Shown: in pieces, positions 3,360 to 27,542 of the stretch | Layout of the letters: each line of letters opens with the position of its first letter | Numbering within the stretch: position 1 is the first letter of the stretch | Assembly (NCBI GenBank): GCA_023819605.1 | Contig: JAMWCB010000003.1 | Location: 1 to 36,536, forward strand | Source: Candidatus Omnitrophota bacterium | Lineage (GTDB): Bacteria > Omnitrophota > Gorgyraeia > B26-G9 | Direction of reading: 5' to 3' | DNA length: 36,536 bases | Notes under the pieces: generated by a model | The model's input: only the letters and a program-made list of their open reading frames with translations | Told to the model about the DNA's origin: nothing | Database searches by the model: none | Program-made: the position numbers and the translations under genes

Positions 3360-3429
3360 CCTAAGCCATAATACTTTCCCCCCTGTTTTCCCCCTGGTTA
3401 TGCTTTCCGACAGCCGGAACACCGCAGAG

Positions 3430-3491
3430 AAAAATAAAACCTCCCCCCCAGCCATCCGGACATCACCTGTTCCAGATGCTGAGATGAGAGG
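3430..3491 (-). terminator. Intrinsic terminator/attenuator in the 5' leader of the PA14 protein gene
   Basis: Minus strand CCTCTCATCTCAGCATCTGGA-loop-TCCGGATGGCTGGGGGGGAGG followed by TTTTATTTTT, between the promoter and the start codon. Confidence 0.65.
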
Positions 3492-3675
3492 ATCCATCCT
3501 CACGGCGCACTTCGGGCACCCCCGGCAATACCCGCTTTCCCCATCAAGCGGGATTAACCGTTGTTCAGCTCATCCGTGCATGAACCTAATCAGTTTTCGC
3601 GCGCGCCGAACCGATACCTGCCGTACGGCACGCGACCATTTTCCCCAACCCGCACCTCTCGGTACAAGCGGGCAA

Positions 3676-3704
3676 ATTATACTTTCCGAGACGGAAAATG
3701 TCAA
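3676..3704 (-). promoter_or_regulatory. Consensus sigma70 promoter with a palindrome in the spacer
   Basis: TTGACA-17 nt-TATAAT on the minus strand; the spacer contains TTTCCG-TCT-CGGAAA. Confidence 0.85.
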
Positions 3705-3755
3705 GCCTGAAAAATTTATCGACAGTAAAAATCCTGATCCGATATACGTGCACAC

Positions 3756-5021
3756 TCATTCAACGGCGCCGGCGGTCGTTTTGGCCAGCAGCGGATCAGT
3801 CCGAAAAACCGGCAGATGATAAAAAAAGAACGCCGCCGCAATCATGCAGCCCATGCCGCAAATCGTCAAGGTTGCCGCCGCGCCGACCTGCGCGGCCAAT
3901 GCCCCGGCCAACAAACTGCCGAACGGCGCCATGCCCATAAACGCCATCGTATACAAACTCATCACCCGTCCCCGCATCCGTTCGGAAACGATCGTCTGCA
4001 ACATAATATTCCCGGCGCTGAATAAAACCATCATCACAAATCCGCTGGCCAGGAGAGTTACCAGGGAAAACCAGAGCCGGTGTGAATGAGCAAACACGGC
4101 CATCCCGATCCCAAAAACAAACGCCGCAACGGCAACCCGCGTCTCCAAACCGCGCATTGATGACCGGCCGGCCAAATAAAACGCGCCGCCCAACGCCCCG
4201 ATTCCGGAAACGGACATCAACAAACCTAATAATTGCGGGCCGCCGCTAAAAATTTCCCGCACAAACACCGGCATCAAGACCGGATAGGCAACGCCCAGCA
4301 TGCTGACCAACGCCATCAAAGTCAGCAAGGCGCGGATTGAAACACTCCGATACGCGTAGTGCATGCCGTCGCGCATCTGGCGGATAAAATGCCGCGGTGA
4401 TTCGGCTACCGGACGCACGGAAATCTTCATGCGCAGCAGCGACGCAAGCACCGCGGTGTAGCTGAGCGCATTAAGCAAAAAACAAATTCCTTCTCCGGCA
4501 ACCGTAATGAGGATCCCGGCAAGGGCCGGCCCGACCAAGCGTGCCGCATTGACGATCGAAGAATTCAACGCGATCGCATTACTTAAATCTTCGCGATCTT
4601 CGATCATATCGATGGTAAACGCCTGGCGAACCGGAATATCAAAGGCGTTAATCAAACCCAGAAAAATACTCAAAACAATAACATGCCATATTTTCAGCAT
4701 TCCGGAAAAAAAAAGCACGGCCAGAGCCAACGATTGCAGCAGCGCTAACGTTTGCGTCAAAATGATCATATGATGCCGGTGGCAGCGGTCCGCGGCGACG
4801 CCGGCGAACGGCGCTACCAAAAATGTCGGGATTTGCCCGGAAAAACCGACCACCCCGAGCAAAAAAGGAGACTGGGTCAGGCGATACACCAGCCACCCCA
4901 GCGCCACCTGCTGCATCCACGTGCCGGTCAATGAAATACTTTGGCCGCAGACAAATAACCGATAATTACGGGACCGCAACGCCCGGAAAAACCGTTGGGA
5001 CATTCCATTAAAAAAACGCAT
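3756..5021 (-). CDS. MFS transporter (MFS_3/DUF894-like)
   Basis: FRALRSRNYRLFVCGQSISLTGTWMQQVALGWL start, GVAADR loop motif, about 12 hydrophobic segments. Start trimmed to ATG 5021 (or 5003) because the longer ORF overlaps the GH38 gene. Confidence 0.92.
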   Translation of the reverse strand: MRFFNGMSQRFFRALRSRNYRLFVCGQSISLTGTWMQQVALGWLVYRLTQSPFLLGVVGFSGQIPTFLVAPFAGVAADRCHRHHMIILTQTLALLQSLALAVLFFSGMLKIWHVIVLSIFLGLINAFDIPVRQAFTIDMIEDREDLSNAIALNSSIVNAARLVGPALAGILITVAGEGICFLLNALSYTAVLASLLRMKISVRPVAESPRHFIRQMRDGMHYAYRSVSIRALLTLMALVSMLGVAYPVLMPVFVREIFSGGPQLLGLLMSVSGIGALGGAFYLAGRSSMRGLETRVAVAAFVFGIGMAVFAHSHRLWFSLVTLLASGFVMMVLFSAGNIMLQTIVSERMRGRVMSLYTMAFMGMAPFGSLLAGALAAQVGAAATLTICGMGCMIAAAFFFYHLPVFRTDPLLAKTTAGAVE

Positions 5022-5082
5022 GCCAGTTAGTATACCGCAAAAACCGCCGGCGCACCGTATTTTTTTCGCACGGGCGGATCCT

Positions 5083-7689
5083 TCAGTCCCGCGCTTTTTC
5101 CCGCAGATACAGTGTTTCAATGCCCCCCGGAGCAAAGGGTAGCGTAACCGTCCGAAATCCCAGAGCGGTGCGCGATGGCCGTTCGAGCATATCCGCCGAA
5201 AAACACCCCGCATGCGCTGGTGAAAACTCGATTCTGCCGAGCGTCTGCCGGCCGGCCGCTTCATAACAACGCAGCACGATTCCTTGCGCGTCCTCGGCGC
5301 GCTTCAGCGCCGTCACAATAAGCGATTCCGGCTGCGTCGCGCAAAAACTATAGGTTTCCGGCAATAAAAATCCGCGCGCGCTTTCCGTTCCGGCAGCCGC
5401 GATTAACGGGCTGTGCTGCTCCCAGCCGGCGCGCACCGCCGCGCTGCGATTAAAACCACCGGCGTAGGGACGGATGCTCCACTCATATACATGTGTCCCG
5501 GCCGTATCGAAAAAATACGGCTCCCCATAAAAATTCTGATCGGTGATCAACAGCGGCGCCGTAATCACCGTCATCGCCTCTTTTGCCTGGTTAACGTCAA
5601 AATATCCCCAACGACTGAGCACCGTGCAGCCGGAATCCGCGCTGGCCACATCCAGCCAGCTCTTTGCGAACAATCCGTACCTGCAGTGCGCCGCCGGCCG
5701 GGGCACCGCTTGACCGGCGCAGGTATGCGCGGATCCCCGGTAGGTTGCGACGGTGTATGGAATATCGTACCGCACTGCCGCTGCACTATCGGTGCGCAGG
5801 GCAAAAACACTCCCGACCCGCAACTTTGCCGCCCCGGCCCGCTTTTTCCAATTCGACAAAATTATCCGCACGTCAATCCGTTTTAATTGCGGATAGACGG
5901 TCACTTCCCGAATAAGCGCGCTGCCCTCCACAAATGCCGAAGTCATGCGCACGGTAGAACTAACCGGGCCGCAGTCTACCCGTTCGGTTTTCGTGTCATA
6001 ACGGGAACTGCGCTGCCATGCTCCCGTCATCGATGCCGGAGCTAAAATATGTTTAGAACGGAACGCCTGCGCGATAACTTCGGAAAAATCGAGAGCGTAA
6101 TCAGCGAGCAGCTGACGGCCGGTCTGTTTATCGATAATGCTCGACACGGCGCCGCGTTCCGGCTGGAACTCAATTTGAAAAAATTGATTTTCCAAACGAC
6201 GGCACGGTGTCGCGTCAACTGCTGTGGAATTCGGCGCGTCCACCGCGCGCACATAATACGTGGCGTACCCTAATGCCGGCACGCGCGCGACAAAACGAAC
6301 TTCCACGGTGCCGCCGCTGCCGCGGCGCTGCTGCGAATCAAGGATGGCGCCATCGGCGTCAACGATCTGCCAGCGCTGCCCTTCCCGCAACGGAAAAGCC
6401 GCCGGAATCGAAACCGTCGCTAAATCGACACGTTCCCAATTCATCGGATTAAATACTGCCACCGGAATTCCGGCATGCCGTTTATGAATATGCCGCAGCA
6501 GCGATTGCAACGCGGTATCGATCATCTGCCGCAGGTTTTGATTCAGCTGCCGGGCACGCCGGAATTTGACCGCATCGCTGCGCCTGCCCCCCTTGCCTCC
6601 CCAATTATGTTCGCGGTTCAACAGCCATCCTTTCCAAGCATCGCGGATTTCATTTGCCGGATACGCATACTCCGCCACCAATGCCGCCGTTATCGCCGCC
6701 AATTTTTCCCCATCCAGCAGCAACGATTCCACCTGCCGGCTCTCCCAGCCATAACGAGGCACATACAAATCCATCGCGTCCCACGCCGAAGGGATATCCC
6801 CCGTGCATCGCGGCAGCTCTTGCTTTTCCGCCTGTAAAAAAAATTCGGAACTATTCACTAATCGCAGCGAAATTCCGCTCGCGGGCTTCGTGCGATTGTA
6901 GGCGCGTATACGTGCCGGTATATTCGGATCCGGCAAGCGGCAATCCCCCCCTACGGCGGCGGCTAATAACGGCAGCGGTTGATCGTGCGCGCGCATGCGT
7001 TCGAACCGCTGAAAAAAAACGTCCGGCTCCCGATACGCCTGCCGGTTATTATAGCCGCCGGGCAATTCCAAGCGAAGCACCGCAGACCCATCCGGAGCTG
7101 CCCAACGCGACAGCCAGGGGCCGGAATAATCACGCCACGTCACGACGTAGTAAATGCCGGATTTTGCAAGAATCTGCGGCAATTGCGCTGTATGACCTGG
7201 AATATCGATATTCCAGGCAAAATCCGTATCATACGCAAAGGTATCCGCCAGCCATTTCTTTCCGAAATAGACATTGCGGATTAACCCTTCCGGCCCCGCT
7301 AAAGCTTCCGCGCACGCGGCGTACAGGCCGCCGCAGTCGATAATTCCCCGCCGCAGCAAATCCCGGATCGTTTCTTTGTAGTGTGGATAGTATTCCAGGA
7401 ATGCCTCAAGCGCCGCCGTAGTTTCAATCGTATAGCGAAAATCCGGATCGCGCCGGATTATGTTCAATACCTGCCGGATGATCTGCGCGTTTTTTTTCCG
7501 GCAATACCGCGGCGTTCCCACCCAACTCAAATCCGCATGCGTATGCGGGATAATATATAGTGTCCGGGGTGCCGCCGGCTCAGCATGACCGGGGCCTGCG
7601 TTGCCGAAGGCCGCCAGACACACAAACACCGCGCGCACCACGCCCGCCCAGAAACTTTCATTCCCAAAACACGTTGCGCGGATTTTCAT
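5083..7689 (-). CDS. Glycoside hydrolase family 38 (alpha-mannosidase-like), probably exported
   Basis: IIPHTHADLSW metal motif, AWNIDIPGHTAQLPQIL nucleophile region, AVFNPMNWER, LENQF, ALKRAED..IVLRCYE; hydrophobic N-terminus ending PGHA. Start uncertain (7689 or 7755). Confidence 0.88.
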   Translation of the reverse strand: MKIRATCFGNESFWAGVVRAVFVCLAAFGNAGPGHAEPAAPRTLYIIPHTHADLSWVGTPRYCRKKNAQIIRQVLNIIRRDPDFRYTIETTAALEAFLEYYPHYKETIRDLLRRGIIDCGGLYAACAEALAGPEGLIRNVYFGKKWLADTFAYDTDFAWNIDIPGHTAQLPQILAKSGIYYVVTWRDYSGPWLSRWAAPDGSAVLRLELPGGYNNRQAYREPDVFFQRFERMRAHDQPLPLLAAAVGGDCRLPDPNIPARIRAYNRTKPASGISLRLVNSSEFFLQAEKQELPRCTGDIPSAWDAMDLYVPRYGWESRQVESLLLDGEKLAAITAALVAEYAYPANEIRDAWKGWLLNREHNWGGKGGRRSDAVKFRRARQLNQNLRQMIDTALQSLLRHIHKRHAGIPVAVFNPMNWERVDLATVSIPAAFPLREGQRWQIVDADGAILDSQQRRGSGGTVEVRFVARVPALGYATYYVRAVDAPNSTAVDATPCRRLENQFFQIEFQPERGAVSSIIDKQTGRQLLADYALDFSEVIAQAFRSKHILAPASMTGAWQRSSRYDTKTERVDCGPVSSTVRMTSAFVEGSALIREVTVYPQLKRIDVRIILSNWKKRAGAAKLRVGSVFALRTDSAAAVRYDIPYTVATYRGSAHTCAGQAVPRPAAHCRYGLFAKSWLDVASADSGCTVLSRWGYFDVNQAKEAMTVITAPLLITDQNFYGEPYFFDTAGTHVYEWSIRPYAGGFNRSAAVRAGWEQHSPLIAAAGTESARGFLLPETYSFCATQPESLIVTALKRAEDAQGIVLRCYEAAGRQTLGRIEFSPAHAGCFSADMLERPSRTALGFRTVTLPFAPGGIETLYLREKARD

Positions 7690-9934: not shown

Positions 9935-10429
9935 TTAGTCTTCCTGTTTTCTTTGCCGGCGGCTGCGCGGCGTTGTCCGATCCGGTACCGCCGGGAGGTT
10001 TGGAGACGATTCGGCGATTTCGACATCTTCCGGATGAAAGACAATACCCTGTTCCCGCTCCAAACGCTCCAGTTCCGCTTTTCCCGGCCCGAATTTATAA
10101 AAATACAATGTTTCTTTCTGGTTGATCACTTCCGCATCGGCATAAGCCTGCGGAATTCCCCAAACAATCGAAACCGGCCAGAACAGCAAATTCACGACAA
10201 AGATACCCCACTGCCCTAAATACGCGTTGCCGATGCCCGGCAGAATATTCAACGCACCGGCAGTTGTCGGATTTTTTTCTTTTTCCGGCTCCAGGCCGAC
10301 CGTGGTGAGACGGGATTCCAATTGACGGTATTCGTACTTCTCATAGGTACGCAGCGATTCACATCCGCTGATGACCACACCGAAAAATACTGCCGTCACG
10401 ACCGAAATTAAACGAGCATGCTTCTTCAT
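9935..10429 (-). CDS. Lipoprotein with a TM2-like membrane segment
   Basis: MKKHARLISVVTAVFFGVVISGC lipobox; KNPTTAGALNILPGIGNAYLGQW; GGAGG RBS before ATG 10429. Confidence 0.8.
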   Translation of the reverse strand: MKKHARLISVVTAVFFGVVISGCESLRTYEKYEYRQLESRLTTVGLEPEKEKNPTTAGALNILPGIGNAYLGQWGIFVVNLLFWPVSIVWGIPQAYADAEVINQKETLYFYKFGPGKAELERLEREQGIVFHPEDVEIAESSPNLPAVPDRTTPRSRRQRKQED

Positions 10430-10493
10430 GGTCCCTCCGCATCGAAACATAGTTTACACGATACGATTTCTCCGAACCGCTGTAAATTACTCC

Positions 10494-10711
10494 TTATTTT
10501 TTACCGGACGACCGACGCGCATCAACATGAAGACGCGTCGACTTCATCGCAGGACTAAAATGTCGTACCTCGACCAACGTGCCGCTCAGAAATTTGTGGA
10601 TTATGCCGGCAACGTATGTTTGATACGGCAAGCCCTCAGTTACTGCCCGTTTTTGCAATTCCGACAAATCTCTTTTTGCTTTTTTTCAGCATTCCAACGA
10701 AGGTGCTTCAT
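10494..10711 (-). pseudogene. Collapsed type II toxin-antitoxin relic (BrnT-like N-terminus joined to a CopG/RHH-like antitoxin C-terminus)
   Basis: ATG 10711 gives MKHLRWNAEKK. The -1 frame continues AKRDLSELQKRAVTEGLPYQTYVAGIIHKFLSGTLVE to TAA at 10494. Confidence 0.7.
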
Positions 10712-10854
10712 TATCCGACCTACAGCACAATATTAACCCATTGTCGGCATTCTGGCAATATAATCTTCCCTTACAATTCCCCTGTATCAAAACGTATCAA
10801 AACTAAAAAAACTTTAGGGAACTTCTAAAAATTAATTTTGTTATGAGGTTCCCG

Positions 10855-11154
10855 TTACTTATGCAGAAACTGCATCACATGAATCGTGATAATACTCACG
10901 CCGATCGCGACCCGGATGCAGCGCAGGAATTGCCGCCGGGGCGGCAGATCTTTCTGCCGGAAAATCTCCGCCAACGCCTCGCCGCTGAGGAAAAACCCAA
11001 TCAAAAACGCGACAATATCTATGGTGATCGGATCAAGATAGCTAGCGCATTGCACGGTTTTATTCGCCTGGCTCTGAATCATATATGCGCACGCCGCCCC
11101 GCCTGCCGATAAACCGCCGGTCAACCAGAGTGTTTTTTTCAGATTATCCATCAT
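10855..11154 (-). CDS. Small hypothetical membrane protein, possibly the last gene of the KamA operon
   Basis: 99 aa with three hydrophobic segments; GAAGGGGGG RBS; 28 bp downstream of the GNAT gene. Confidence 0.7.
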   Translation of the reverse strand: MMDNLKKTLWLTGGLSAGGAACAYMIQSQANKTVQCASYLDPITIDIVAFLIGFFLSGEALAEIFRQKDLPPRRQFLRCIRVAIGVSIITIHVMQFLHK

Positions 11155-11182
11155 CCCCCCTTCGCGATAGCGATCCGCCGCC

Positions 11183-11653
11183 TCAGATTATTTTTTTTGA
11201 AAAAATCAACAAATCATCGTGCGCGCTGTAAAAACCGGAAATGCGGCCGACCAGCGCATAACCGTTTTTCTCGTAGAGCTTACAAGCCGGACCATATTCC
11301 GCGCGCGAAGACGTTTCAATGCGCACCACGGATTGCTGCGCGAAGAGTTGTTCGCGCATATGCGCTTCCGCCTGAGCGATCAAGCGCGTACCGATACCGC
11401 GGCTCTGGATTTTTTTATCGACAACCACCCAATAAATATCCCAGGCTGCCGCCGTCAAGGGAGTGCGGCCATAAAGAATAAATCCGGCCGTGCGGCCGTC
11501 CACCGCTTCTTCCCGGTAAAAATATTTTTTTTCGCCGTTATTCCGGTAATCTTCCAGGATTTCCCGCAATATATCCGTCTCATGCGCGCCGAAGACGCCG
11601 GTTTCCTGCGCCATTTTTACCAAAGCAAAAATTTTCGCTTCATCGATGAGCAC
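11183..11653 (-). CDS. GNAT family N-acetyltransferase
   Basis: YWVVVDKKIQSRGIGTRL acetyl-CoA motif, IETSSRAEY, LYEKNGY; likely GTG start at 11653 overlapping the upstream stop. Confidence 0.88.
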   Translation of the reverse strand: MLIDEAKIFALVKMAQETGVFGAHETDILREILEDYRNNGEKKYFYREEAVDGRTAGFILYGRTPLTAAAWDIYWVVVDKKIQSRGIGTRLIAQAEAHMREQLFAQQSVVRIETSSRAEYGPACKLYEKNGYALVGRISGFYSAHDDLLIFSKKII

Positions 11654-12641
11654 CGCACACCGCCTGTTCAATAATTTTTTGAATGACCTCCGTAAATAAC
11701 CATCCCCGCGCGGCCGCCTGCCGCATAAAACCGCTGTCGTCGTTGATATCCGGATTGGGATTGACGTCGATGACCGCCAGCTCGCCGCCCCGCGCGCGCA
11801 GATCAACCCGGCAATACCCGCGGCAGCCCAACGCCTGCGCCGCCGCAGCGGCAAACCGCCCGATACGCTGCCGCGCCGCCGTTGGGATATCCGCCTGCGG
11901 CGAAGGCGTCAGCTTTCGATATTCCACACTGGCCGTATCCCATTTCGCGGCGTAGGTAAAAAACGGCCGGCATTGCGGCGCCGCCGCGAAATCCATCACC
12001 GAAATTCCCACCTGCTCGTACGGCGCGCTGCCGAGCAACCCGACGTTATACTCCACCCCGTCAAAAAATTCCTCCACGATCAAGCCGGCCGGGTGATTTT
12101 TTAATTTTTTTTCGATGCCGGCGCGGGCGGATTGCCGGTCGCCGGCCCATGATTCCGCGTCAATCCCGACGCTGCCGTCTTCGGCGCCGGGTTTGATAAA
12201 TAACGGGTACCGTAATTGCGTATCGCTAAACTCATCCAACCGCCGGACCAGCACGCCGGCGGGAACCGGGATACCCTGCCGGCGAAGCTCCTCTTTTGCC
12301 TGATGTTTCTGCAGGCACACTGCTAATGCGGCGGAACCGTTGCCGGTAAACGGAATCCGTGTTTCTTCCAGGAGGCGCGCAAAAACGACTTCCTGGCCGG
12401 AATCATCGCAAAACCCTTCAAAGAGATTAAAAATACACAGCGGCGAATTTTGCCGCAACCGAGCAACCAGCGACGCGCCGTTTTCTTTCAGATCATGCAC
12501 GCGCACGGCAAACAGCTCGGCGGCATACCCGCGCTGCCGCGCGGCGTCCAGCACATTGCGGGCGCAGCGCAGCGCGTCCGCCGTATCCGGACGAAATGCT
12601 TGCTCTTCGGCAACCGTGACTAAAAGCTTTTTCTTGTTCAT
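11640..12641 (-). CDS. ATP-grasp ligase, D-Ala-D-Ala ligase-like (copy 2)
   Basis: FNLFEG, IPFTG, YPLFIKPGAEDGSVGI, IVEEF, YCRVDLR, IDVNPNP; lacks the canonical Ddl GGxSxEH and LHGxxGEDG motifs. Confidence 0.9.
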   Translation of the reverse strand: MNKKKLLVTVAEEQAFRPDTADALRCARNVLDAARQRGYAAELFAVRVHDLKENGASLVARLRQNSPLCIFNLFEGFCDDSGQEVVFARLLEETRIPFTGNGSAALAVCLQKHQAKEELRRQGIPVPAGVLVRRLDEFSDTQLRYPLFIKPGAEDGSVGIDAESWAGDRQSARAGIEKKLKNHPAGLIVEEFFDGVEYNVGLLGSAPYEQVGISVMDFAAAPQCRPFFTYAAKWDTASVEYRKLTPSPQADIPTAARQRIGRFAAAAAQALGCRGYCRVDLRARGGELAVIDVNPNPDINDDSGFMRQAAARGWLFTEVIQKIIEQAVCGAHR

Positions 12642-13648
12642 GACCGCGCACAGCCGCAGCGAGCCAAGGAAAGCGCGAGCAATTCCTGCACAAAAACGCT
12701 GAAATCACGCCGGTGCAAGCCGCACATAAGCATCAAATCGCTATAGTTGGGGGAAAGCCCGGGCAACGGATTGATGTCGATAATTTTCGGAACGCCGGCG
12801 GCATCCAGACGAAAATCGATCCGGGCGATATCCTTAAGTTCCAACGCGCGGAACGCTGCCTGCGCGAACGCCTTGATCATCTGCGTTGTTTCGCGGGGCA
12901 AAATTTCCTCGGCCTTTTCATATTTTATTTTTTCCTGCCACGCGCGTTTATGTTCCAACGAATAGACAAAAAATGCGTTCGCGGTATGCCGCGGCGAAAT
13001 CCGCATCATGCCCACAATCATCGGCTCGGCATTGCCATACACCCCGACCGTCACTTCATCGCCGGGAAGAAATTCCTCGATCAGCGCCGGCTGGCCGTAC
13101 TGCTCCCGGATAAACGCCGTTTTTTTTTCGATGGCGGAATAGTCTGCCGCGACCGAATCCGAAAAAATCCCTTTCGACGATCCCTCCCAGCGGGGCTTGA
13201 CGATAAACCGTCTGCCGTCAAAACCGGCGGCCTGCCGTTTAAGATCGGCCGGCCCGGCAGCCATAACCATATCCGGCACCGGCACACCGGCGTGCTTAAG
13301 CATGACATTGGCCAGATATTTATCGAGGGCTATTCCCAAGGCAATCGCGTCGGAACCGAAGTAAGGTATCTGCAGCCATTCCAGAAGACAGGGGATTTGC
13401 GACTCCCGGCCGCGCGTTTTTCCGCGGCCTTCGGCAATATTCAAAACGAATTCCGGCTTTTCGCTGCGCAGGCGCGCGAACACCGTTTCATCCTGTTCCA
13501 GCCGGACCGCGGTATATCCCATTTTTTCAATTTGCCGCTGGAGGAATTCTATGGTTTCTATTTCGTCGTATTCCTCGTCGCAATCGCCGCCGGAATGTTC
13601 GCGGCGCAAATTATAGGTGATCCCGATACGGCGGATCTGTTTATTCAC
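12638..13648 (-). CDS. ATP-grasp ligase, D-Ala-D-Ala ligase-like (copy 1)
   Basis: IGITYNLR..EEYD, LNIAEG..RESQIP, IVKPRWEGSSKGI, LIEEFLPG, ARIDFRLD, IDINPLPGL; ATGA overlap with the next gene. Confidence 0.9.
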   Translation of the reverse strand: MNKQIRRIGITYNLRREHSGGDCDEEYDEIETIEFLQRQIEKMGYTAVRLEQDETVFARLRSEKPEFVLNIAEGRGKTRGRESQIPCLLEWLQIPYFGSDAIALGIALDKYLANVMLKHAGVPVPDMVMAAGPADLKRQAAGFDGRRFIVKPRWEGSSKGIFSDSVAADYSAIEKKTAFIREQYGQPALIEEFLPGDEVTVGVYGNAEPMIVGMMRISPRHTANAFFVYSLEHKRAWQEKIKYEKAEEILPRETTQMIKAFAQAAFRALELKDIARIDFRLDAAGVPKIIDINPLPGLSPNYSDLMLMCGLHRRDFSVFVQELLALSLARCGCARS

Positions 13649-13671
13649 CGGCTGCCTCCCTGATTCAGATG

Positions 13672-13700
13672 AAAGGGGAATGTCTCAGACATTCCCCTTT
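13672..13700. terminator. Perfect inverted repeat between kamA and the first ligase (stabiliser or partial terminator)
   Basis: AAAGGGGAATGTCT-C-AGACATTCCCCTTT; only a short U-run on the coding strand. Confidence 0.6.
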
Positions 13701-13729
13701 ACCTGCACACGAATCCTCATACGGCGTTC

Positions 13730-14899
13730 TTATCCCTGAGGATTATAGTACTGGATCACCTCATTTTTATAATTACGCAGGGTAACCTGATCTTTGGCCA
13801 GGGAGATCAGATAATTCGGCCCCAGCGGAATCTTGCCTTTGCCTTCGGTGCCGTCAACCACGAACGTCGGGATGCACATACCGCTGGTATGCCCGCGCAG
13901 CTTTTCGATAATCTCAATGCCCTGGTACACGGACGTGCGGAAGTGATTGGCCCCGACCACCGGGTCGCACTGATACAAATAATACGGCCGCACGCGAATG
14001 GCCTGCAGCTTCTGCATGAGCTGTTTCATGACGTCCGGATTGTCGTTGACGCCTTTAAGCAGCACCGCCTGGTTGCTCAACGGAATACCGCAACGCTGCA
14101 GTTTCCGGCAGGCTTCCGCCGCCTGCGGCGTGACTTCCGCCGGATGGTTAAACTGCACATTGATCCAGAGATTTTCATATTTTTCCAGGATACGGCAGAG
14201 CATGGCATCGATCCGCTGCGGATTGACCACCGGCGTGCGCGTGCCGATGCGCATGACTTCTACGCTTTTAATCTGCCGGATTGCCGAAAGAATATAATCC
14301 AAGCGTTCCGAATGCAGCGTCAACGGATCTCCGCCGGAGACAATAATTTCCCGGATCTGCGGCTTATCTTTGACATAGCGCAGCGCCTGATCGATTTCGC
14401 GCAGCGACGGCTCGGCATTTTTCGCTTTCCACAAACGCTTGCGGGTGCAATGCCGGCAATACATGAAACACCGCCCGGTAACCAAAAGCAGCGCCCGATC
14501 CGGATAACGATGGACCAGAAACGGCGTCACCGATGTTTTCTCTTCCGCCAACGGATCCATCGTTTCATGCTCGTTCTCCCGGATTTCCTCCAGGGACGGA
14601 ACGCATTGCCGGCGAATCGGGTCATGCGGATCCATAACATCTTTGATCAACGACAGATAATACGGCGTAATCAGCATTTGGTACGATTTTATCACCTGCT
14701 TGAGCGCGATTTTTACCTGTTCATTTAACGGGAGATACTTGGCAAGTGCTTCGATACTGGCGATAGGATGCCGAACTTCTTGGGTGGACGAAGGTATTTC
14801 TTTTAGGCAAAGCTTCGTACTCGGAGGCTCTTCAAAGTTAGGCTCCGGAGGTTCCTCTGACTTCTGTTCTGTTTTTTTCACCAACTTTTCATTTTCCAC
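13730..14899 (-). CDS. kamA: KamA-family radical SAM aminomutase (lysine 2,3-aminomutase-like)
   Basis: HRYPDR, CFMYCRHCTRKR (CxxxCxxC), SGGDPL, RIGTRTPV, PYYLYQCD, RGHTSG, VVDGTEGKGKIP (PLP lysine); AAGGAG RBS and GTG start. Confidence 0.93.
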   Translation of the reverse strand: MENEKLVKKTEQKSEEPPEPNFEEPPSTKLCLKEIPSSTQEVRHPIASIEALAKYLPLNEQVKIALKQVIKSYQMLITPYYLSLIKDVMDPHDPIRRQCVPSLEEIRENEHETMDPLAEEKTSVTPFLVHRYPDRALLLVTGRCFMYCRHCTRKRLWKAKNAEPSLREIDQALRYVKDKPQIREIIVSGGDPLTLHSERLDYILSAIRQIKSVEVMRIGTRTPVVNPQRIDAMLCRILEKYENLWINVQFNHPAEVTPQAAEACRKLQRCGIPLSNQAVLLKGVNDNPDVMKQLMQKLQAIRVRPYYLYQCDPVVGANHFRTSVYQGIEIIEKLRGHTSGMCIPTFVVDGTEGKGKIPLGPNYLISLAKDQVTLRNYKNEVIQYYNPQG

Positions 14900-14954
14900 A
14901 GTTTGCTCCTTGGTTAGTTGCTTTCCCTGCGCACTTCCTGTGCGCTCAAGAATA

Positions 14955-14983
14955 GATATTAATTATTTTTAATTAATTGTCAA
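14955..14983 (-). promoter_or_regulatory. Promoter of the kamA cassette with an AT-rich palindromic operator
   Basis: TTGACA followed directly by ATTAATT-AAAAAT-AATTAAT covering the spacer and a TAATAT -10 candidate. Confidence 0.6.
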
Positions 14984-15017
14984 GCATTTCAAAAATTTTT
15001 TCCGTCCGGCTGCCGCA

Positions 15018-16748
15018 TCAACGCGCCGGCCGATCCCGGCTAACCGTGGGAACGAACGGTTCCGGCATCGCCGCCGCCGGCAGGCCGAGTATTTCGCGCG
15101 CCCGGTGCAACGCATGATCGATATGGCTGGTAATATTTTCCTGTCCGATGGTATCCAGCAATCCCGCTTTGGTCATCGCGAACAACGGCTGGGTATGCAC
15201 ACCGGAAAGGACCAGCGCCGTTCCATCCCGCCGCGCAGTATCATATAAATCCTCCAGCGCTTTCAAACCCGAGGCATCGATGGACAAAACATCGCGCATG
15301 CGCAAAATAAAAACCTTGGGTTTTTCCCGGTCAAACCGCACCATGCTCTTAAACGTATCGACCACCCCGAAGAAAAACGCGCCGTAGATTTCAAATACTT
15401 CCACCCCCGCCGGAATCACTCGTTTATCCACGGCATTGGGGTCTTCGGCGTCATCCTCTTCCTGCAACGACTTCGTGATATACCCGGCTTGCGTGACCTC
15501 CGACATGCGGTACATGAACAGGAACGCCGCCAGCACCACGCCGGTTTGAATCGCCACGGTCAGATCAATGAGCACGGTCAGAAAAAATGTCAGCAGCAAC
15601 AGCACAATATCGCTGCGCGGGCAACGGAACAACTTAATAAATAAATGCAGTTCGCTCATGTTGTAGGCAACGATGATCAGGATAGCGGCAAGCGCCGGCA
15701 TCGGAATAAGTCCGGCCAACCGCCCCAAAAAAACCATGATCAACAGCAACGTCACGGCATGCACGATACCGGCCACCGGGGTCTGAGCGCCGTTTTTAAT
15801 ATTCGTCGCCGTACGCGCGATCGCGCCGGTAGCGGGAATCCCCCCGAAAAACACCGACGCGATATTCGCAATCCCCTGCGCGAGAATTTCCGCATTGGAA
15901 CGATGCCGGCGGCCGGTCATCCCGTCAGCCACCACGGCGGAAAGCAAGGATTCAATGCCGGCAAGCAAAGCGATCGTCACCGCCGGATGAAACATTTTCC
16001 GGATCAATTCCCCGGTGATGACCGGCAGCTGCGGCACCGGCAGGGAATTCGGCACGCCACCGAAACGCGACGCAATGGTTTCCACCGGCAAATGAAAAAC
16101 CTGCACGACGAGGGTAGTCAAGACAATTGCCGCCAAAGAACCGGGCAGTTTCGGAACAAAACGCGGCCAGTAAATAATCACACCCAGGGCCAGCGCACCG
16201 ATAACCAGCGCCCAGGGATTGGCTGTGTGGCTGTATTCAAGATACACGGTAATTTTGTCGAGAAACTCAGCCGGAACCTGCTCGATCCGCAAGCCAAAAA
16301 AATCTTTCACCTGGGAAGTAAATATGATCAACGCGATACCGCTGGTAAACCCGATGGTCACCGGATACGGGATAAATTTAATGAACGAACCGACGCGCAT
16401 CATGCCCATAATGATCAATATCATGCCGGCGAGCAATGTCGCCACCGCCAATCCCGCATAACCGTACTGCGCAACAATGCCGTACACAATCACGATAAAC
16501 GCGCCGGTCGGACCGCCGATTTGGAACCGGCTGCCGCCGAGCGCCGAGATAATAAAACCCGCGACGATCGCCGTATAAAGCCCCTGCTCCGGCCGCACGC
16601 CGGAGGCGATCGCAAACGCGATCGCCAGCGGCAGCGCGACAATCCCGACAATAACGCCGGCGCCCAAATCCGCGATGAATGTTTTTAACGAATAGCCTTC
16701 CCGGATAACCGTAACCAATTTCGGCAATAACGATGAATGGTATTGCAT
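15018..16748 (-). CDS. sulP: SulP/SLC26 anion transporter with STAS domain
   Basis: DLGAGVIVGIVALPLAIAFAIASG, QIGGPTGAF, PATGAIARTATN, C-terminal STAS (GAFFFG..IDASG). Confidence 0.96.
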   Translation of the reverse strand: MQYHSSLLPKLVTVIREGYSLKTFIADLGAGVIVGIVALPLAIAFAIASGVRPEQGLYTAIVAGFIISALGGSRFQIGGPTGAFIVIVYGIVAQYGYAGLAVATLLAGMILIIMGMMRVGSFIKFIPYPVTIGFTSGIALIIFTSQVKDFFGLRIEQVPAEFLDKITVYLEYSHTANPWALVIGALALGVIIYWPRFVPKLPGSLAAIVLTTLVVQVFHLPVETIASRFGGVPNSLPVPQLPVITGELIRKMFHPAVTIALLAGIESLLSAVVADGMTGRRHRSNAEILAQGIANIASVFFGGIPATGAIARTATNIKNGAQTPVAGIVHAVTLLLIMVFLGRLAGLIPMPALAAILIIVAYNMSELHLFIKLFRCPRSDIVLLLLTFFLTVLIDLTVAIQTGVVLAAFLFMYRMSEVTQAGYITKSLQEEDDAEDPNAVDKRVIPAGVEVFEIYGAFFFGVVDTFKSMVRFDREKPKVFILRMRDVLSIDASGLKALEDLYDTARRDGTALVLSGVHTQPLFAMTKAGLLDTIGQENITSHIDHALHRAREILGLPAAAMPEPFVPTVSRDRPAR

Positions 16749-19671: not shown

Positions 19672-20468
19672 CTCCGCATCGTTTCGCGCGCAAACATACG
19701 CAGCACTTCGATAACCTCCGCCTGCGTCTCAACGCAATACTGCGCCCCGGATCTTTTCTGCCGGCCGACGACAATTCCGACATCGCTTTCCCGCAAAATC
19801 CGGAACACGTCCTCGTCGGTGCGATCATCGCCGATATAGACCGCCACCCGCTCCCGCGGCGGTATCCCGCTCTGCCGCCACAGCCATCGCACCGCGTGCC
19901 CTTTATTCCAGGGGCGCGCCGGCCGCGCCTCCCGGACCAACGCGCCTTCGAGCGTTTCCAGCATTCCCTGTTCCCGCCACGGCCGAATACAGTGCTGGAA
20001 ACAGGATCTCACCGTACGCCGCCGCTGTGCCGCAACCGCGCGGTAGTGGAGCGCCACGGAAAACAGCTTGCCCTCGATCAACACGCCGGGAATATCGGCG
20101 CACACCCGCCGCAAACACCGTTCTACCGCAACCAGCGCCTGCGCGATTGCCGGCGATAATTTCCGCGTATAAGCGCCCTGCGGGGTCTGAATACACCAGC
20201 CGTGATCGCCGGCATAGGAAATATCCGGGATCGCCACCCGGCGGCGCAAATCCGCCAATGGCCGGCCGCTGACCACCGCGAGGCGGACGCGCGGCAACGC
20301 CGCGCACTGCCGCAGCACGCGACGCACCGCCGGCGCTAACCGCGCCTGTTCCGGCCGCGCGGCAAACGGCGCCAGCGTGCCGTCATAATCCACACCAAGC
20401 ATCACCTGCCGCCCGGCCAGTTTCCGACAAATCTCCGCTTGCGCGCGCCGGAAATCTTGAGGCATCAT
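19668..20468 (-). CDS. otsB: Trehalose-6-phosphate phosphatase (HAD)
   Basis: DYDGTL, VSGR, ALHYR, WNKG, YIGDDRTDED. Confidence 0.94.
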   Translation of the reverse strand: MMPQDFRRAQAEICRKLAGRQVMLGVDYDGTLAPFAARPEQARLAPAVRRVLRQCAALPRVRLAVVSGRPLADLRRRVAIPDISYAGDHGWCIQTPQGAYTRKLSPAIAQALVAVERCLRRVCADIPGVLIEGKLFSVALHYRAVAAQRRRTVRSCFQHCIRPWREQGMLETLEGALVREARPARPWNKGHAVRWLWRQSGIPPRERVAVYIGDDRTDEDVFRILRESDVGIVVGRQKRSGAQYCVETQAEVIEVLRMFARETMRR

Positions 20469-22735
20469 GCGTCCCGTTTCAAAGCCATTAATTCATTAAA
20501 AATCGTCCCGGCCCAGCGGAAAATATTATTCTCTTTGACCAGCGCGCGCATCCGTTCCATACGGCGCTGTTTTTCCTCCACCGGCATCACGATCGCCTGG
20601 TGCACCCCCTGCGCAAATTCTTCGATCGAATAGGGGTTGATCTGCACCGCATCGGTCAATTCACGCGCCGCGCCGGTAAACTTACTGAGCACGAGCATAC
20701 CGTTCAAATCATCTTTTGCCGTCACGTATTCTTTAGCCACCAAATTCATGCCGTCATGCAGCGAACTGACGATGCAGATATCGCCAACCTGATAATAAGG
20801 CAATATCTCGTCCTGGGAAAAATGATGTTTAAGATAGATGATCGGTTTCCACGTTCCGTCGGAATAATTCCAGTTTATTTTCTCGACCAGCTCATCCAGT
20901 TCGCCGAGCAGGTCGTGATAGCGTTTAATATGGGTGCGGCTGGGCGCCGCCAACTGCAACAATACGAATTTTCCCCGGTACTCCGGATAGCGGGTCAATA
21001 AACGGTCAACGGCAAGCATTCGTTCGTTCAATCCTTTCGTATAATCGATACGGTCGACGCCGACCGCGACAATTTTACCCTCCAGCGAAAATTCTTCGCG
21101 CAGCCGGCGTACGCCGCCGCTCACCGCCGGCTGCCCACGTTCGGAACCGGCAACGGCCACGCTGATCGGAAACGGACGGACAAGGGTTTCGTGCCCGGCG
21201 CAATGCACGCTGAATTTTTCCGTATCGATCCGCGATTCTAAAAAACGGTTGGCGGTTTCCAAAAAATTATTACAATGGAACTGCAAATGAAATCCGATCA
21301 AATCGCAGCCGAGCATGCCGTCTAATATTTCCTGCTGATAGGGGCAAATCGCGAACACTTCCGGATTCGGCCAGGGGATATGCCAAAACAGAGCGACCGT
21401 CACGTCCGGCCGCCGCGCTTTAATCATCCGCGGCAAGAGCGTGAAATGATAATCCTGAATAAACACGAACGCATGCCCATCCTGCGGCAGTTCTTCGAGC
21501 AGAGCGTCGGCAAAACGCTGGTTAACTTTTTGATACATCTGCCAATCGGCACTGCGGAACAGCGGCCGCGTATGCGTAATATGACAGAGCGGCCACAGCC
21601 CTTCATTGGCAAATCCGTAGTAATATCCCTGCTCTTCCGCTTTCGAAAGCCAGACGCGTTTGAGCACGTAGCGGATATCTTCCGGCGGCACGCCCACCTT
21701 ATCTTTGGCATTGACAAAAGCGCGATCCGCGCTGCCGCTGCCGTGCGCCAGCCACATACCGCCGCAGGCGCGCAAAATCGGGTCAAGCGCGGTCACGACC
21801 CCGCTGGCCGGACGCACGCATACCGGACGGTTCGTCTGCTGATTCACGATATGCATATAAGGCTCGCGGTTGGACACCGCGAAAAACCCGTGGTCGCCGA
21901 GTTTAGCCACGACGATATCCCGCAATTTTTTCTCCGTCCATAATTCCGTGTTTTCCAGCCGCGCCGACGCGGTGTCCGCAACCGCCCGCCGCGCGACCCG
22001 CAAACTCAGCGCAACCTGTTCCACTTCTCCGGCCAACGCCCGCATCTCATCAGCGCCTTTAATCGACGAAAACGCGCTGGTTTCTCCGCGATGAAACCGG
22101 CGGAACCAATCGGTCAGCTGCCGCAGCGGAAAAATAAACAGCCGCCACTGCATGAGCACGCTCACGCAAAACAGCAGAATAACCAGCACGATTACCGGCA
22201 TACCGATGCGCTCCCAGAGCTGCGCTAAACGAAAAAAGACATAGGAGGTATCATAGACTACTTCCACCATGCCTAAGCGGCGGCCGGCAGCATCACTGAC
22301 CGGTAGGCGGTATCGGTACAGCACATACTCCTGATACCGTTCCAGCGAAGTAGCCGCGCCTGACTCCACCGATTCCGGAAGAGGCATGGCCGGCGAAAAT
22401 TGTTCCTGGAGGAAAGCAATCCGCCGAGTTATGGCGAAAATCTTGCCGGCTTCATCATACAGAACGCAGCCCTGAAAATTTTTCCGCGTTTCAAACCGCT
22501 CGACCAGCCGCTGCGCTGCCGGAACATCCCGCTGCGCCAGCACATACTGCGCGGACACTTCCAGGCTTTCCGCCACCGCGCGCGCTTTCCGCTGCAACTC
22601 GTCGAGCAGGCGGTTTTCTTCCCGGCGGACGTTCCAAATCCCGTAACCGATCAGAACCGCGCACACCACGATGAGAATGGGCAAAAAGAAAAGAATTAAG
22701 CGTTTCAAAAAGCCTCCCCTGAATCTCCCCGACAC
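20465..22735 (-). CDS. otsA: Trehalose-6-phosphate synthase (GT20) with an N-terminal TM-periplasmic-TM-HAMP-like module
   Basis: [67 protein letters not shown]; about 260 extra N-terminal residues with two hydrophobic helices. Confidence 0.94.
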
Positions 22736-22798: not shown

Positions 22799-22831
22799 AA
22801 AAAAACGCCATCCGGATAATTACGGATGGCG
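22799..22831 (-). terminator. Leader terminator (expression platform) upstream of otsA
   Basis: CGCCATCCG-TAATTATC-CGGATGGCG-TTTTTTT. Confidence 0.85.
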
Positions 22832-22880
22832 GCCCGACCATCGACAATGCCTCCGAAGCGGTTGCTTCGGACCCTTAATT
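22826..22880 (-). ncRNA. Candidate Na+-sensing (DUF1646-type) riboswitch aptamer
   Basis: AAGGG-TCCGAAGC-AACC-GCTTCGGA-GGCATTGTCGATGGTCGGGCCGCC between promoter and terminator; the 3' end overlaps the terminator stem. Family match recalled from memory, not searched. Confidence 0.6.
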
Positions 22881-25769: not shown

Positions 25770-26144
25770 TCAGCGCAAATCATCGGACAGGTCGTAGCGG
25801 ATCAGCGCCAGTATCGCCGCGTGCGGCACAATCACATATTTTACATTTTCGAATTCGAATTCCACCGCGGCGCTGCGCAGGAAAATCGCCCGGTCATGCT
25901 CGCGCGCCTGCAAAGGCACATAATGCGGCGTCGCCGCCTCGCGGGCTTCGGCCCACGGTTCTTTGTGCAAATCCTGAGGATCGGCCACCGGCGTACCCGG
26001 CCCGACGCTGACCACCTTGCCGCTATGGACTTTTTCCTTCTCGTACGTTCCCTGGGGAAGATAGAGCCCGGAATTGGTCATTTCCTTTTGATCATCGGGC
26101 TTGATCAGCACCCGATCGCCGACGATTATCAATTCGCGCTTCAT
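25770..26144 (-). CDS. GroES-family co-chaperonin, stand-alone
   Basis: IVGDRVLIKPD..TNSGLYLP..GKVVSVGPG..AILALI. Confidence 0.88.
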   Translation of the reverse strand: MKRELIIVGDRVLIKPDDQKEMTNSGLYLPQGTYEKEKVHSGKVVSVGPGTPVADPQDLHKEPWAEAREAATPHYVPLQAREHDRAIFLRSAAVEFEFENVKYVIVPHAAILALIRYDLSDDLR

Positions 26145-26459
26145 GGTAGAGCGTATTATAACACACAATCATGGCAAGAAAAAAATTTTTTGGGCACTGT
26201 CTAAGCGGAAAGCAGGAATAATTTTCTGTGCGCCGACAGAGAAAGTTATCTTTGAAATGGCAATGCTAATGGTGGCCATACGCCAAACTGAGCAACCAGC
26301 AAAAAATAATCAACAAAAATGAGCAAAAATGTACTCTATCCGGTATAATTATTGCTGAAACTTGGATAACAATCGTGCCTAAAAGCGTACCCGTGAAATT
26401 ACGGGATCAACACATGTATTCACGTTAAACGAAATTATAAACACAACCATCGGTAACCA

Positions 26460-27299
26460 ATGAAAAAAAATACGTTAACAATTTTTACCTGCCTGCTTTT
26501 TACGGCCACCATTCCCCATCAAGCTCTTTGTGCGTCATTTCTTTCGCCTCGCCTATCAATTAATCAAAAAAATTTTAATAATACCATTGCCGCGCCTTAT
26601 CCAGATCGTGCGATAATAAATCCATCCTCTCTCCCTACCATGGTTGATCTGGATATTTTAGAAGACACGGTTTTTTCCGGAAAAACAGAAGAAGTTTATT
26701 TAATGATCCAGCAGGCGACCGCAGCCAATGATCATTTCCTATGGTTTATTCCGGAAGAAGATGACGACGATAGCTTTTTAAAGTATCAACCGGAATATAA
26801 TAATGTCGCTCTTTCCGTAAAGGGACAAATTTTTGCTGATAAAATAACCGCGCAGATACAACAATTCGCCGATCGGTATGATTTTTCTTAGGATATCTAT
26901 GAACATCCCTTCGCACAGATCGCGGAAGAACTGCTTTCCAACCTCTGGCGGCACTCTAACGCGTGGGGCATATTTGCCGTTCGGCTAATCCCCAAACCCG
27001 GACAAAGTGAAATAATTCTCGAAATCAGCCTTATTGACCATGGCGATGGCATTGATGATATCGATGCGATATTAGAAGGCGAATTTGAAAGGAAAGACAG
27101 TCCGGGAGAAGGGATTGCCAATTTAAAAAAAATATATAAAAATTTCGGAATACCCAGCGAGTTCATATTCAACAGCGAAACTCAAAAAAACTATCACGGC
27201 ACCGCCGTAACCATAAAACTATTTTCTCGACAAAAGATTAATACTCCTTTACTCAAAAAAGAAATAAACTATTCACATTTTTTTTCTTCTGCCGTTTAA
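26460..27299 (+). pseudogene. Signal-peptide protein with an RsbT/RsbW-like GHKL ATPase domain, interrupted by an in-frame TAG at 26889-26891
   Basis: The frame stays open for 135 codons after the TAG: EELLSNLWRH (N box), DHGDGI (G1), PGEGI (G2), HGTAVTI, ending in TAA at 27297-27299. Region is visibly AT-rich. Confidence 0.75.
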
Positions 27300-27310
27300 T
27301 CTTCTGCTCA

Positions 27311-27541
27311 TCATTTCCCGGTCAACACATCAATGCGTTTTTTATCAAATCCGACAATGACTTCCCCGTCGATCACCACCACCGGCACGCCCATCTGTCC
27401 GGAAACTTCTACCATTTTCTGCGCTTCCGCCTCATCCTGGGAAACATCCACTTCGGTATACGCAAACCCCTTGGCGGAAAGGTACTGTTTGGCAAGTTTG
27501 CAATACGGACAGGTCGGCGTCGAATAGACGGTAATATCCAT
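27311..27541 (-). CDS. Glutaredoxin-like protein (NrdH/YruB type)
   Basis: VYSTPTCPYC, SGQMGVPV, IVGFD. Confidence 0.93.
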   Translation of the reverse strand: MDITVYSTPTCPYCKLAKQYLSAKGFAYTEVDVSQDEAEAQKMVEVSGQMGVPVVVIDGEVIVGFDKKRIDVLTGK

Positions 27542-27542
27542 G

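Follow-up and report, generated by a model that had tools for sequence, protein, structure and literature searches.

A recurrent cassette of a KamA-type aminomutase and ATP-grasp ligases in Candidatus Omnitrophota, predicted to make a beta-lysine-containing amide

The known fates of beta-lysine are fermentation, N-epsilon-acetyl-beta-lysine, modification of elongation factor P (EF-P) and a few actinomycete antibiotics. Here we report on a four-gene cassette with a predicted beta-lysine product, located on a 36,536-nucleotide stretch of DNA from a Candidatus Omnitrophota bacterium (assembly GCA_023819605.1, contig JAMWCB010000003.1, positions 1 to 36,536), hereafter called the window. The cassette codes for a KamA-type aminomutase (KamA), two ATP-grasp ligases (AG1 and AG2) and a small acyltransferase of the GNAT superfamily (GNAT). 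It brings known enzyme families together in a new, recurrent combination, which is strongly conserved and uncharacterised. No account of a cassette combining KamA with ATP-grasp enzymes was found in the searchable literature, which omits most subscription journals. The host genome of the window is 2.26 Mb long and 92.7% complete, and all genome-wide negatives given below refer to this completeness.

Described systems and layout of the cassette

Several described systems resemble parts of the cassette. In EpmA/EpmB, a short KamA-family aminomutase feeds beta-lysine to a paralogue of lysyl-tRNA synthetase (LysRS), a ligase that acts on EF-P. In PylB/PylC, a radical-SAM lysine mutase is followed by an ATP-grasp enzyme that joins the product to another amino acid through an amide bond. 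The N-acetylated dipeptide osmolyte NAGGN is made by Ngg, a GNAT fused to an ATP-grasp enzyme, together with AsnO. Finally, the AblA/AblB system of methanogens, also annotated in Pelobacter carbinolicus, likewise unites a lysine 2,3-aminomutase and a GNAT in one operon, and acylates an amine of beta-lysine. Excerpts from two papers describe the Methanosarcina ablAB operon as salt-induced (PMC1224877; PMC3543383).

By analogy, the cassette of the window may work like AblAB extended by ligation steps. Unlike AblAB, it has two ATP-grasp ligases between KamA and GNAT, its KamA is a truncated form and its core consists of KamA and a ligase rather than KamA and a GNAT. Its GNAT is a RimI-like protein of 156 amino acids (aa), unlike AblB. 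The likeness to PylB/PylC is one of logic, a radical-SAM lysine mutase preceding an ATP-grasp ligase. PylB, unlike the KamA of the window, does not belong to the KamA-type pyridoxal phosphate (PLP) aminomutases. The AG1 profile matched 39 solved sequences (E up to 0.01), none of them a PylC chain, and no PylD-like gene was seen. With Ngg, the cassette shares the pairing of a GNAT with ATP-grasp amide ligation and the logic of an N-acetylated product. Unlike Ngg, its GNAT and ligase are separate genes, no amidotransferase is found among the neighbours scanned, and the predicted input is beta-lysine, not glutamine. No link between the cassette and the Ngg/NAGGN family emerged. The EpmA/EpmB pair resembles it in combining a short aminomutase with a dedicated ligase, which here is an ATP-grasp enzyme and not a LysRS paralogue.

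KamA, AG1, AG2 and GNAT lie in that order and in the same orientation on the minus strand. The features of the locus are as follows.

14956 to 14983, minus strand: promoter-like site, TTGACA-16-TAATAT, matching at 10/12 positions; best of 8 sites in 10300-15150
14959 to 14976, minus strand: perfect 7-4-7 palindrome between the promoter hexamers, occurring once in the window
13730 to 14899, minus strand: KamA, short-form radical-SAM/PLP aminomutase, predicted lysine 2,3-aminomutase, 389 aa
13672 to 13700, minus strand: hairpin with a 13-bp stem in the KamA-AG1 spacer, -25.4 kcal/mol, z -5.5
12638 to 13648, minus strand: AG1, Ddl-fold ATP-grasp enzyme, predicted beta-lysine-using amide ligase, 336 aa
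11640 to 12641, minus strand: AG2, second Ddl-fold ATP-grasp ligase of a distinct subfamily, 333 aa
11183 to 11653, minus strand: GNAT, small N-acyltransferase, 156 aa, GTG start
10855 to 11154, minus strand: hydrophobic membrane open reading frame (ORF) of 99 aa, downstream, probably outside the system

An earlier note, made from the letters of the window, had described four co-oriented genes of which the last three overlap, and this layout is confirmed: AG1 and AG2 share ATGA, and AG2 and GNAT share 14 nt. For GNAT, the ORF list gives 11854 as the first position; the GTG at 11653 is the most plausible start within an operon, and a 156-aa protein of the identical extent that this start gives is on record in the protein collection. 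KamA and AG1 are separated by a spacer of 81 nt. The hairpin in this spacer is not followed by a T-run, none of 200 shuffles folds as well, and it could determine how much KamA transcript is present relative to ligase transcript.

The sigma-70-like promoter site upstream of KamA scores 10/12; among the 8 promoter-like sites of 10300-15150 (shuffles averaged 4.5) it ranks first. The palindrome between its hexamers was matched in 0 of 100 shuffles. At the other end of the cassette, the small membrane gene, which the earlier note had counted as a part of it, turned out to be an orphan. It has no Pfam or NCBIfam match, no match of at least 45 bits in 80 related loci, and was not found in any of 20 relatives (20/20). 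It is therefore placed outside the conserved unit.

Linkage of KamA to AG1

An AG1 profile, built from 25 of the 120 AG1 homologues listed, was used to search for related loci, and the best 80 of 134 confirmed loci were retained. Of these, 74 contain AG2, 65 GNAT and 63 KamA, and 46 have the complete set of four. In 56 loci KamA adjoins the ligase directly and is co-oriented with it, either upstream (41) or downstream (15). It lies 0.4-6 kb away in 7 further loci and is absent from the fetched stretch in 17; the genome was checked for 8 of these 17, and all 8 have KamA elsewhere. The four genes thus form a conserved biosynthetic unit, and their co-conservation, which the earlier note had proposed as a check, is strong. 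Some lineages nevertheless do without AG2 or GNAT, which leaves KamA and AG1 as the invariant core.

The two core enzymes also occur as single proteins. Fused KamA-AG1 proteins of 718-814 aa are encoded in 8 of the 80 loci, and 9 fusions of KamA with a Ddl domain were found among the 120 longer homologues listed. When 10 long representatives, picked from 150 listed, were domain-scanned, 4 proved to be KamA-AG and 1 AG-KamA; the fusion therefore arose in both orders. Linkage extends to more distant sequences. Around AG genes that are 29-39% identical, sampled as 12 regions from class-level relatives within Omnitrophota, KamA stands beside the ligase in 11 regions, two tandem ligases (mostly both AG1-like) in 9 and a GNAT in 1. 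The divergent AG pairs that neighbour KamA here show 31-37% identity.

Co-occurrence was then counted in whole genomes, the distances between KamA and AG1 on a contig being read by hand from the coordinates. A sample of 61 Omnitrophota genomes, the same set for both genes, gave 31 genomes with AG1 and KamA, 3 with KamA only, 0 with AG1 only and 27 with neither. In all 31 the two genes share a contig and lie within ~2.5 kb. The second sample comprised 151 genomes from the phylum of a metagenome-assembled genome labelled Thermodesulfobacteriota. An AG1-type gene is carried by 49 of them, and KamA by every one of these (49/49), versus 98/151 for KamA overall. On the same contig, within ~5 kb, KamA is found in 35 of the 49 AG1 carriers, or in 36 if the 38%-identical KamA-family gene of genome G130 is included. 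The pattern thus repeats in two phyla, with different gene orders. The linkage of KamA to AG1 is far beyond chance.

Taken together, the fusions, the adjacency and the lack of genomes with AG1 only suggest that AG1 acts on the product of KamA. A complex prediction for KamA and AG1, both given as alignments, had a score of 0.00 (mark 0.32), which counts neither way on binding. L043 encodes a natural fusion of KamA and AG1, and in its AlphaFold2 model, made from an alignment of 21 sequences, both domains fold, with a mean predicted local distance difference test score (pLDDT) of 81.5. With a predicted template-modelling (TM) score of 0.59 and a linker that stays under pLDDT 50, the model is uninformative on a fixed domain arrangement.

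Around this core, the loci vary from lineage to lineage. Three are single-ligase minimal cassettes, with KamA, AG1 and GNAT and no AG2 (L025, L034, L036). An ArsR-type regulator lies upstream in 9 Omnitrophota loci. Its reading as a metal sensor was rejected, the sequences being, by eye, without the CXC and His-rich motifs of metal-sensing members. Twelve loci of the Thermodesulfobacteriota phylum were fetched with their neighbourhoods. In three of these, a PAS histidine kinase, a sigma-54 activator and a receiver protein are inserted in the cassette, and a fourth (L117) has a sigma-54 activator only. Three others have a KamA-AG1 fusion followed by a protein made of an unknown N-domain and a C-terminal GNAT. 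That such a protein (L121) might be a hidden Ngg-like fusion was considered and discarded, since alignment against the AG2 profile by hhalign gave a probability of 0.4%. A YbdK/GCS2-like ligase is present in one of the 12 loci. In L126, one of the three loci with the fusion and this GNAT protein, the place of the fusion is taken by a larger protein with a C-terminal AG1 domain. This protein (959-5350, 1463 aa) carries the AG1-type domain at 1146-1456 only, and Pfam is blank over its first ~1140 residues.

In Myxococcus, both halves of a 748-aa protein (P0147) are AG1-like, and among the longer homologues listed ~110 further double AG1-like ligases of ~700 aa were seen in Myxococcota (Myxococcus, Corallococcus, Hyalangium, Archangium). 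Even within one family, the cassette is patchy (8 of 17 genomes). This patchiness, together with the dedicated regulators, fits a conditional, accessory function.

The predicted enzymes

The KamA of the window matches the Pfam domains LAM_C (2.7e-20) and Radical_SAM (2.4e-12). It scores 311 bits with TIGR00238, the KamA family of radical-SAM proteins (cut-off 199.2), the only curated model that it passes. Among the more specific models the best-scoring one is AblA, those for glutamate and arginine substrates and for EpmB all being lower. KamA stays below the cut-offs for glutamate 2,3-aminomutase (TIGR04368, 418.7 vs 650 bits) and for EpmB (TIGR03821, 246.8 vs 369.3 bits).

Alignment with the solved lysine 2,3-aminomutase of Clostridium (2A5H) covers residues 23-368 of the latter (E 8.4e-118). 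The cysteines C144, C148 and C151 of the CxxxCxxC motif align with C125, C129 and C132 of 2A5H, and R153, D312, D349 and K356 with R134, D293, D330 and K337. We take the 2A5H roles to be binding of the epsilon-ammonium group for D293 and D330, binding of the carboxylate for R134, the PLP lysine for K337 and Fe-S ligation for the cysteines. All the mapped KamA residues are invariant in 30 cassette relatives. The HRYPDR, YQCD and VVDG motifs are all present, and the alignment upholds the claim of the earlier note that the acidic residues of the last two are kept. The signature is of the lysine type. The Asp pair is replaced in glutamate 2,3-aminomutase, and here it is kept. Because of these residues, the product is read as beta-lysine. 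The sequence features thus indicate that KamA is a predicted lysine 2,3-aminomutase; a second KamA was not found in the host genome.

Both ligases contain the Dala_Dala_lig_C domain (AG1: 1.8e-21, 77 bits; AG2: 7.8e-21, 75 bits; Pfam cut-off 24). With the Ddl models, they remain far from the cut-offs: 131.2 and 127.3 bits, about half of the 243 set for NF002378, and 110 and 101 bits versus 245.65 for TIGR01205. The AlphaFold2 model of AG1 has a pLDDT of 92, and the nearest solved folds found by Foldseek are all Ddl (TM 0.74-0.85, 19-24% identity). The PDB search with the profile of AG1 relatives, which matched the 39 solved sequences mentioned above, retrieved only Ddl or Van proteins, except for two weak matches, GshAB and an L-amino-acid ligase. 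AG1 is thus an ATP-grasp enzyme of Ddl-like fold, and AG2 is placed there by its Pfam domain and catalytic residues.

Residues were compared in an alignment of 65 AG1 and 66 AG2 sequences with the host's own Ddl. The two families keep the catalytic set of Lys, Glu, Arg-Asp and metal ligands. They also keep an acidic residue at a position that we take to correspond to Glu15 of Ddl, and a Ser at the presumed S281. The glycine-rich, N-terminal GGxSxE motif and the HGxxGEDG motif are replaced, and the KY of the Ddl omega-loop becomes KR in AG1 and KW in AG2, the Tyr being lost. AG1 has distinctive invariant charged residues, many of them acidic and located in the N-terminal domain. The statement that the ligases lack the D-Ala motifs of Ddl is thus correct for GGxSxE, HGxxGEDG and the omega-loop Tyr, but it does not extend to the Glu15-like acid, the S281-like Ser or the catalytic set. 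With the catalytic residues kept and the D-Ala motifs replaced, both proteins probably work as amide ligases on substrates different from D-Ala.

AG1 shares its fold with Ddl and VanA, and both cassette ligases share with them the Dala_Dala_lig_C domain and catalytic residues. Unlike Ddl, they are linked to KamA and not to mur genes. They are extra paralogues, as the earlier note had supposed, since the host has a separate true Ddl (184 bits) on another contig, at a locus that also has a MurB-like ORF. Database records nevertheless label these ligases 'D-alanine-D-alanine ligase', and the family is large, with 340 clusters at 50% identity that AG1 matches (E up to 1e-30).

The GNAT belongs to its superfamily by its Pfam matches (best 3.3e-10; Acetyltransf_7, 40.7 vs 27; Acetyltransf_1, 39.3 vs 20.7). 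In NCBIfam, it is matched by five generic GNAT models only (E up to 0.01), and its closest solved relative is 2R7H, a 'putative D-alanine N-acetyltransferase' (2.5e-17). Its equation with AblB is not borne out: the AblB model TIGR03827 has no match to the GNAT (E up to 0.01) and none in the host genome (E up to 0.001).

The proposed pathway and its alternatives

We propose the following sequence of steps. KamA would convert L-lysine into beta-lysine, as its conserved residues suggest. AG1 would take beta-lysine as one of its substrates and form an amide by way of an acyl phosphate, a role that its linkage to KamA points to. AG2 would form a second amide bond or add a residue, and the GNAT would acylate, probably acetylate, an amine that is still free; both of these steps are optional in some lineages, and the lineages therefore probably make related, non-identical compounds. 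That a beta-lysine-containing amide is made, we consider likely. The reading as a whole, a conditionally expressed pathway from L-lysine to a beta-lysine-containing amide or short pseudopeptide that is often N-acetylated, is the one we favour, if by a modest measure of confidence. The acetylated beta-Lys di- or tripeptide of the earlier note would be one putative product of this kind. The least secure step is the role of the product; that it acts as a cytoplasmic stress or compatible solute, by a logic akin to that behind N-epsilon-acetyl-beta-lysine, is put forward tentatively as the likeliest role.

The stress role is suggested by the surroundings of the cassette, whose relevant features are these.

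22824 to 22874, minus strand: nhaA-I RNA (Rfam RF03057, 47.4 bits vs gathering 37), 88 nt upstream of otsA
20465 to 22735, minus strand: otsA, trehalose-6-phosphate synthase (GT20), 756 aa
19009 to 19671, minus strand: DUF5752 gene beside treT; its counterparts lie at 3698-4333 in L016 and 10870-11514 in L041

A SulP/DauA-like transporter gene lies upstream of the cassette on the same strand. Past a divergent ORF follows an otsA-otsB-DUF5752-treT operon, again on the same strand, so that the trehalose operon of the earlier note is indeed next door. Excerpts from PMC9646797 state that the nhaA-I class senses Li+ (rare variants Na+), and name trehalose-6-phosphate synthase as an occasional associated gene, possibly in an osmotic response. 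The otsA of L016 has no nhaA-I copy upstream. Of the 12 divergent Omnitrophota regions, 6 encode a co-oriented 225-aa membrane protein directly upstream; it contains two 'mechanosensitive channel conserved TM helix' repeats (PF05552) and reaches 72 bits with NF033912 (cut-off 100). Each of these contexts, be it the trehalose genes, the riboswitch or the channel-like gene, speaks weakly for a stress solute. A further hint is the gene for a GNAT-HDAC fusion that lies downstream in L007.

Two further observations concern the trehalose genes. The DUF5752 gene, by its place beside treT in three loci, suggests a protein partner of the trehalose synthase TreT. The N-terminal part of OtsA resembles a sensor domain, sCache_3_2, at a Pfam score of 23, below the gathering threshold of 28.4. 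Elsewhere in the window, positions 26001-28000 have a GC content of 0.42-0.46 versus 0.53-0.61 around, with no ORF of at least 150 aa between 25749 and 27542; this stretch could be an island or non-coding.

Several findings weigh against the proposed pathway. The first concern KamA, which falls under the AblA equivalog cut-off (TIGR03820, 456.4 vs 525.4 bits). KamA lacks the C-terminal part, so that its match to the model runs from position 13 to 362 of 417. The protein stops at about position 370 of the 416 in 2A5H, and a Cys-rich tail of ~46 residues is missing. The same truncation is seen in 42 of the 63 KamAs encoded in the related loci (57-71% identical), of which 34 stop within 18 residues and 8 continue into AG1. 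The other 21 (46-51% identical, Synergistota-labelled) have tails of 49-67 residues, mostly but not all Cys-rich. The substrate and oligomeric state of KamA are therefore only indirectly deduced.

Other points bear on the unity of the pathway. AG2 is missing from 6 of the 80 loci and GNAT from 15, a few of these being cut by a contig end, and the members of a clade are not independent, so that the co-occurrence counts overstate significance. In 7 loci, AG1 and AG2 are separated by a gene for a signal-peptide-bearing deacetylase of the PIG-L family. GNAT is absent from 6 of these, and the stretch of the remaining one, L029, ends within the PIG-L gene. The end product therefore differs by lineage and may reach the envelope. 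As a separate observation, one of these PIG-L proteins (L021, 8013-9320, with a secreted protein at 5013-5486) has a 230-aa C-terminal part of unknown nature, and 6 to 10 loci are similar.

The last points concern regulation and osmotic function. A shared operator was sought upstream of KamA across the related loci, and the best palindromes differ from locus to locus. Thus, of the promoter and operator claimed in the earlier note, the promoter remains as the best promoter-like site of the region, but the operator role of the palindrome, absent from related loci, is a guess. No riboswitch precedes the cassette in the window or in 9 of the 80 related loci as judged by Rfam; upstream of the window KamA (E up to 5) nothing reached threshold, the sole match (15.7 bits) being at chance level, and nothing relevant was found in the 9 loci. 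TreT and DUF5752 adjoin the cassette in only 3 of 81 places (the window and the 80 related loci), namely the window, L016, where they are upstream, and L041, where they are downstream; closer relatives account for two of the three. By their record titles, the related loci come from groundwater, lakes, subsurface sites and digesters, which are not specifically saline.

Among the alternatives, one holds that the ligases polymerise beta-lysine, by itself or in alternation with a different residue, into a polyamine-like short polycation, whose charge and level would be tuned by the GNAT and by deacetylases. ATP-grasp polymerases do exist, for example cyanophycin synthetase and RimK, and the invariant acidic residues in the N-terminal domain of AG1 fit a cationic substrate. 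Tandem AG1-type ligases, sometimes fused as in P0147, are found in many cassettes, and in L007 a gene for a fusion of a GNAT with an HDAC of the acetylpolyamine-amidohydrolase type, a family known for acetylpolyamine deacetylation, lies downstream. This HDAC neighbour occurs in one locus only, among the handful of neighbours scanned with Pfam, and the minimal cassettes have a single ligase. On this balance, a polycation is unlikely.

Quite unlikely, too, is a product that is exported as an antibiotic or signal, or attached to the envelope (peptidoglycan or a surface polymer). Besides the signal-peptide PIG-L genes, this idea draws on a secreted protein with an acidic, aromatic-ended tail encoded upstream of KamA in 11 Omnitrophota loci, an LD-carboxypeptidase after the fusion gene of L038, a major facilitator superfamily (MFS) transporter beside KamA in 10 Synergistota loci and the SulP gene that adjoins the cassette in the window and in L009. 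The Ddl fold of the ligases and a weak match of the GNAT to a putative streptothricin acetyltransferase (E 1.5e-4) point the same way. However, the accessory genes are each restricted to a lineage, the host still has a Ddl of its own, and the neighbours annotated include no mur, fem, nonribosomal peptide synthetase or other tailoring genes. The patchiness within one family (8/17) argues against a core wall function.

Modification of a protein, for instance beta-lysylation of the Lys in the KPGKG loop of EF-P with the ATP-grasp ligases in place of EpmA, is very improbable. The host EF-P does have a KPGKG loop, and its genome has no EpmA above the cut-off (the best match, 232 vs 287 bits in a 486-aa frame, is probably LysRS). 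KamA is short and tail-less, as EpmB is short. But its score is much higher with AblA than with EpmB (456 vs 247 bits, the EpmB cut-off being 369), and efp lies within none of the 80 loci. The cassette occurs in 31 of 61 relatives, whereas EF-P is expected in every genome, and dedicated regulators, a GNAT and a second ligase are unsuited to a constitutive protein modification. Genes for BipA, RlmN, an RlmI-like protein and YchF are near cassettes in several lineages; neighbours of this translation-related sort would be expected by chance. We also observed a second, divergent EF-P-like protein on contig C100 of the host genome (L101, 359-2324), with the Arg-containing loop SARGAS; its ORF overlaps a radical-SAM ORF on the same strand.

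Scarcely credible is an ordinary AblA/AblB operon or lysine-fermentation KamA beside spare D-Ala-D-Ala ligases, for although KamA plus GNAT is the AblAB gene content according to excerpts from PMC1224877 and the sources label the ligases accordingly, the AblB model fails to match, the ligases attain roughly half of the Ddl cut-off, KamA and ligase are found fused in either order, none of the 61 and 151 genomes has AG1 only, and no kamDE-type fermentation genes are among the window genes scanned.

Altogether, the pathway from L-lysine to a beta-lysine-containing amide remains our preferred reading, and it can be put in a wider form, for which we consider the case evenly balanced. AG1-type proteins may be an unrecognised, dedicated family of beta-lysine ligases. 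With the short KamA, they would form an ancient, sometimes fused two-gene module in no fewer than three phyla, Omnitrophota, Synergistota and Thermodesulfobacteriota, while Myxococcota too have AG1-like double ligases. The module would make undescribed beta-lysine amides, such as an N-acetyl-beta-lysyl dipeptide that serves as a stress solute, or a polycation of oligo-beta-lysine.

If the proposed pathway is correct, beta-lysine would have another fate, through a module carried by between one third and one half of the genomes sampled in two phyla. Poorly known anaerobes, including ultra-small Omnitrophota, would contain a new small molecule or polymer. Hundreds of clusters labelled 'D-alanine--D-alanine ligase family' would gain a function, and new enzymes for the synthesis of beta-amino-acid amides would become available.

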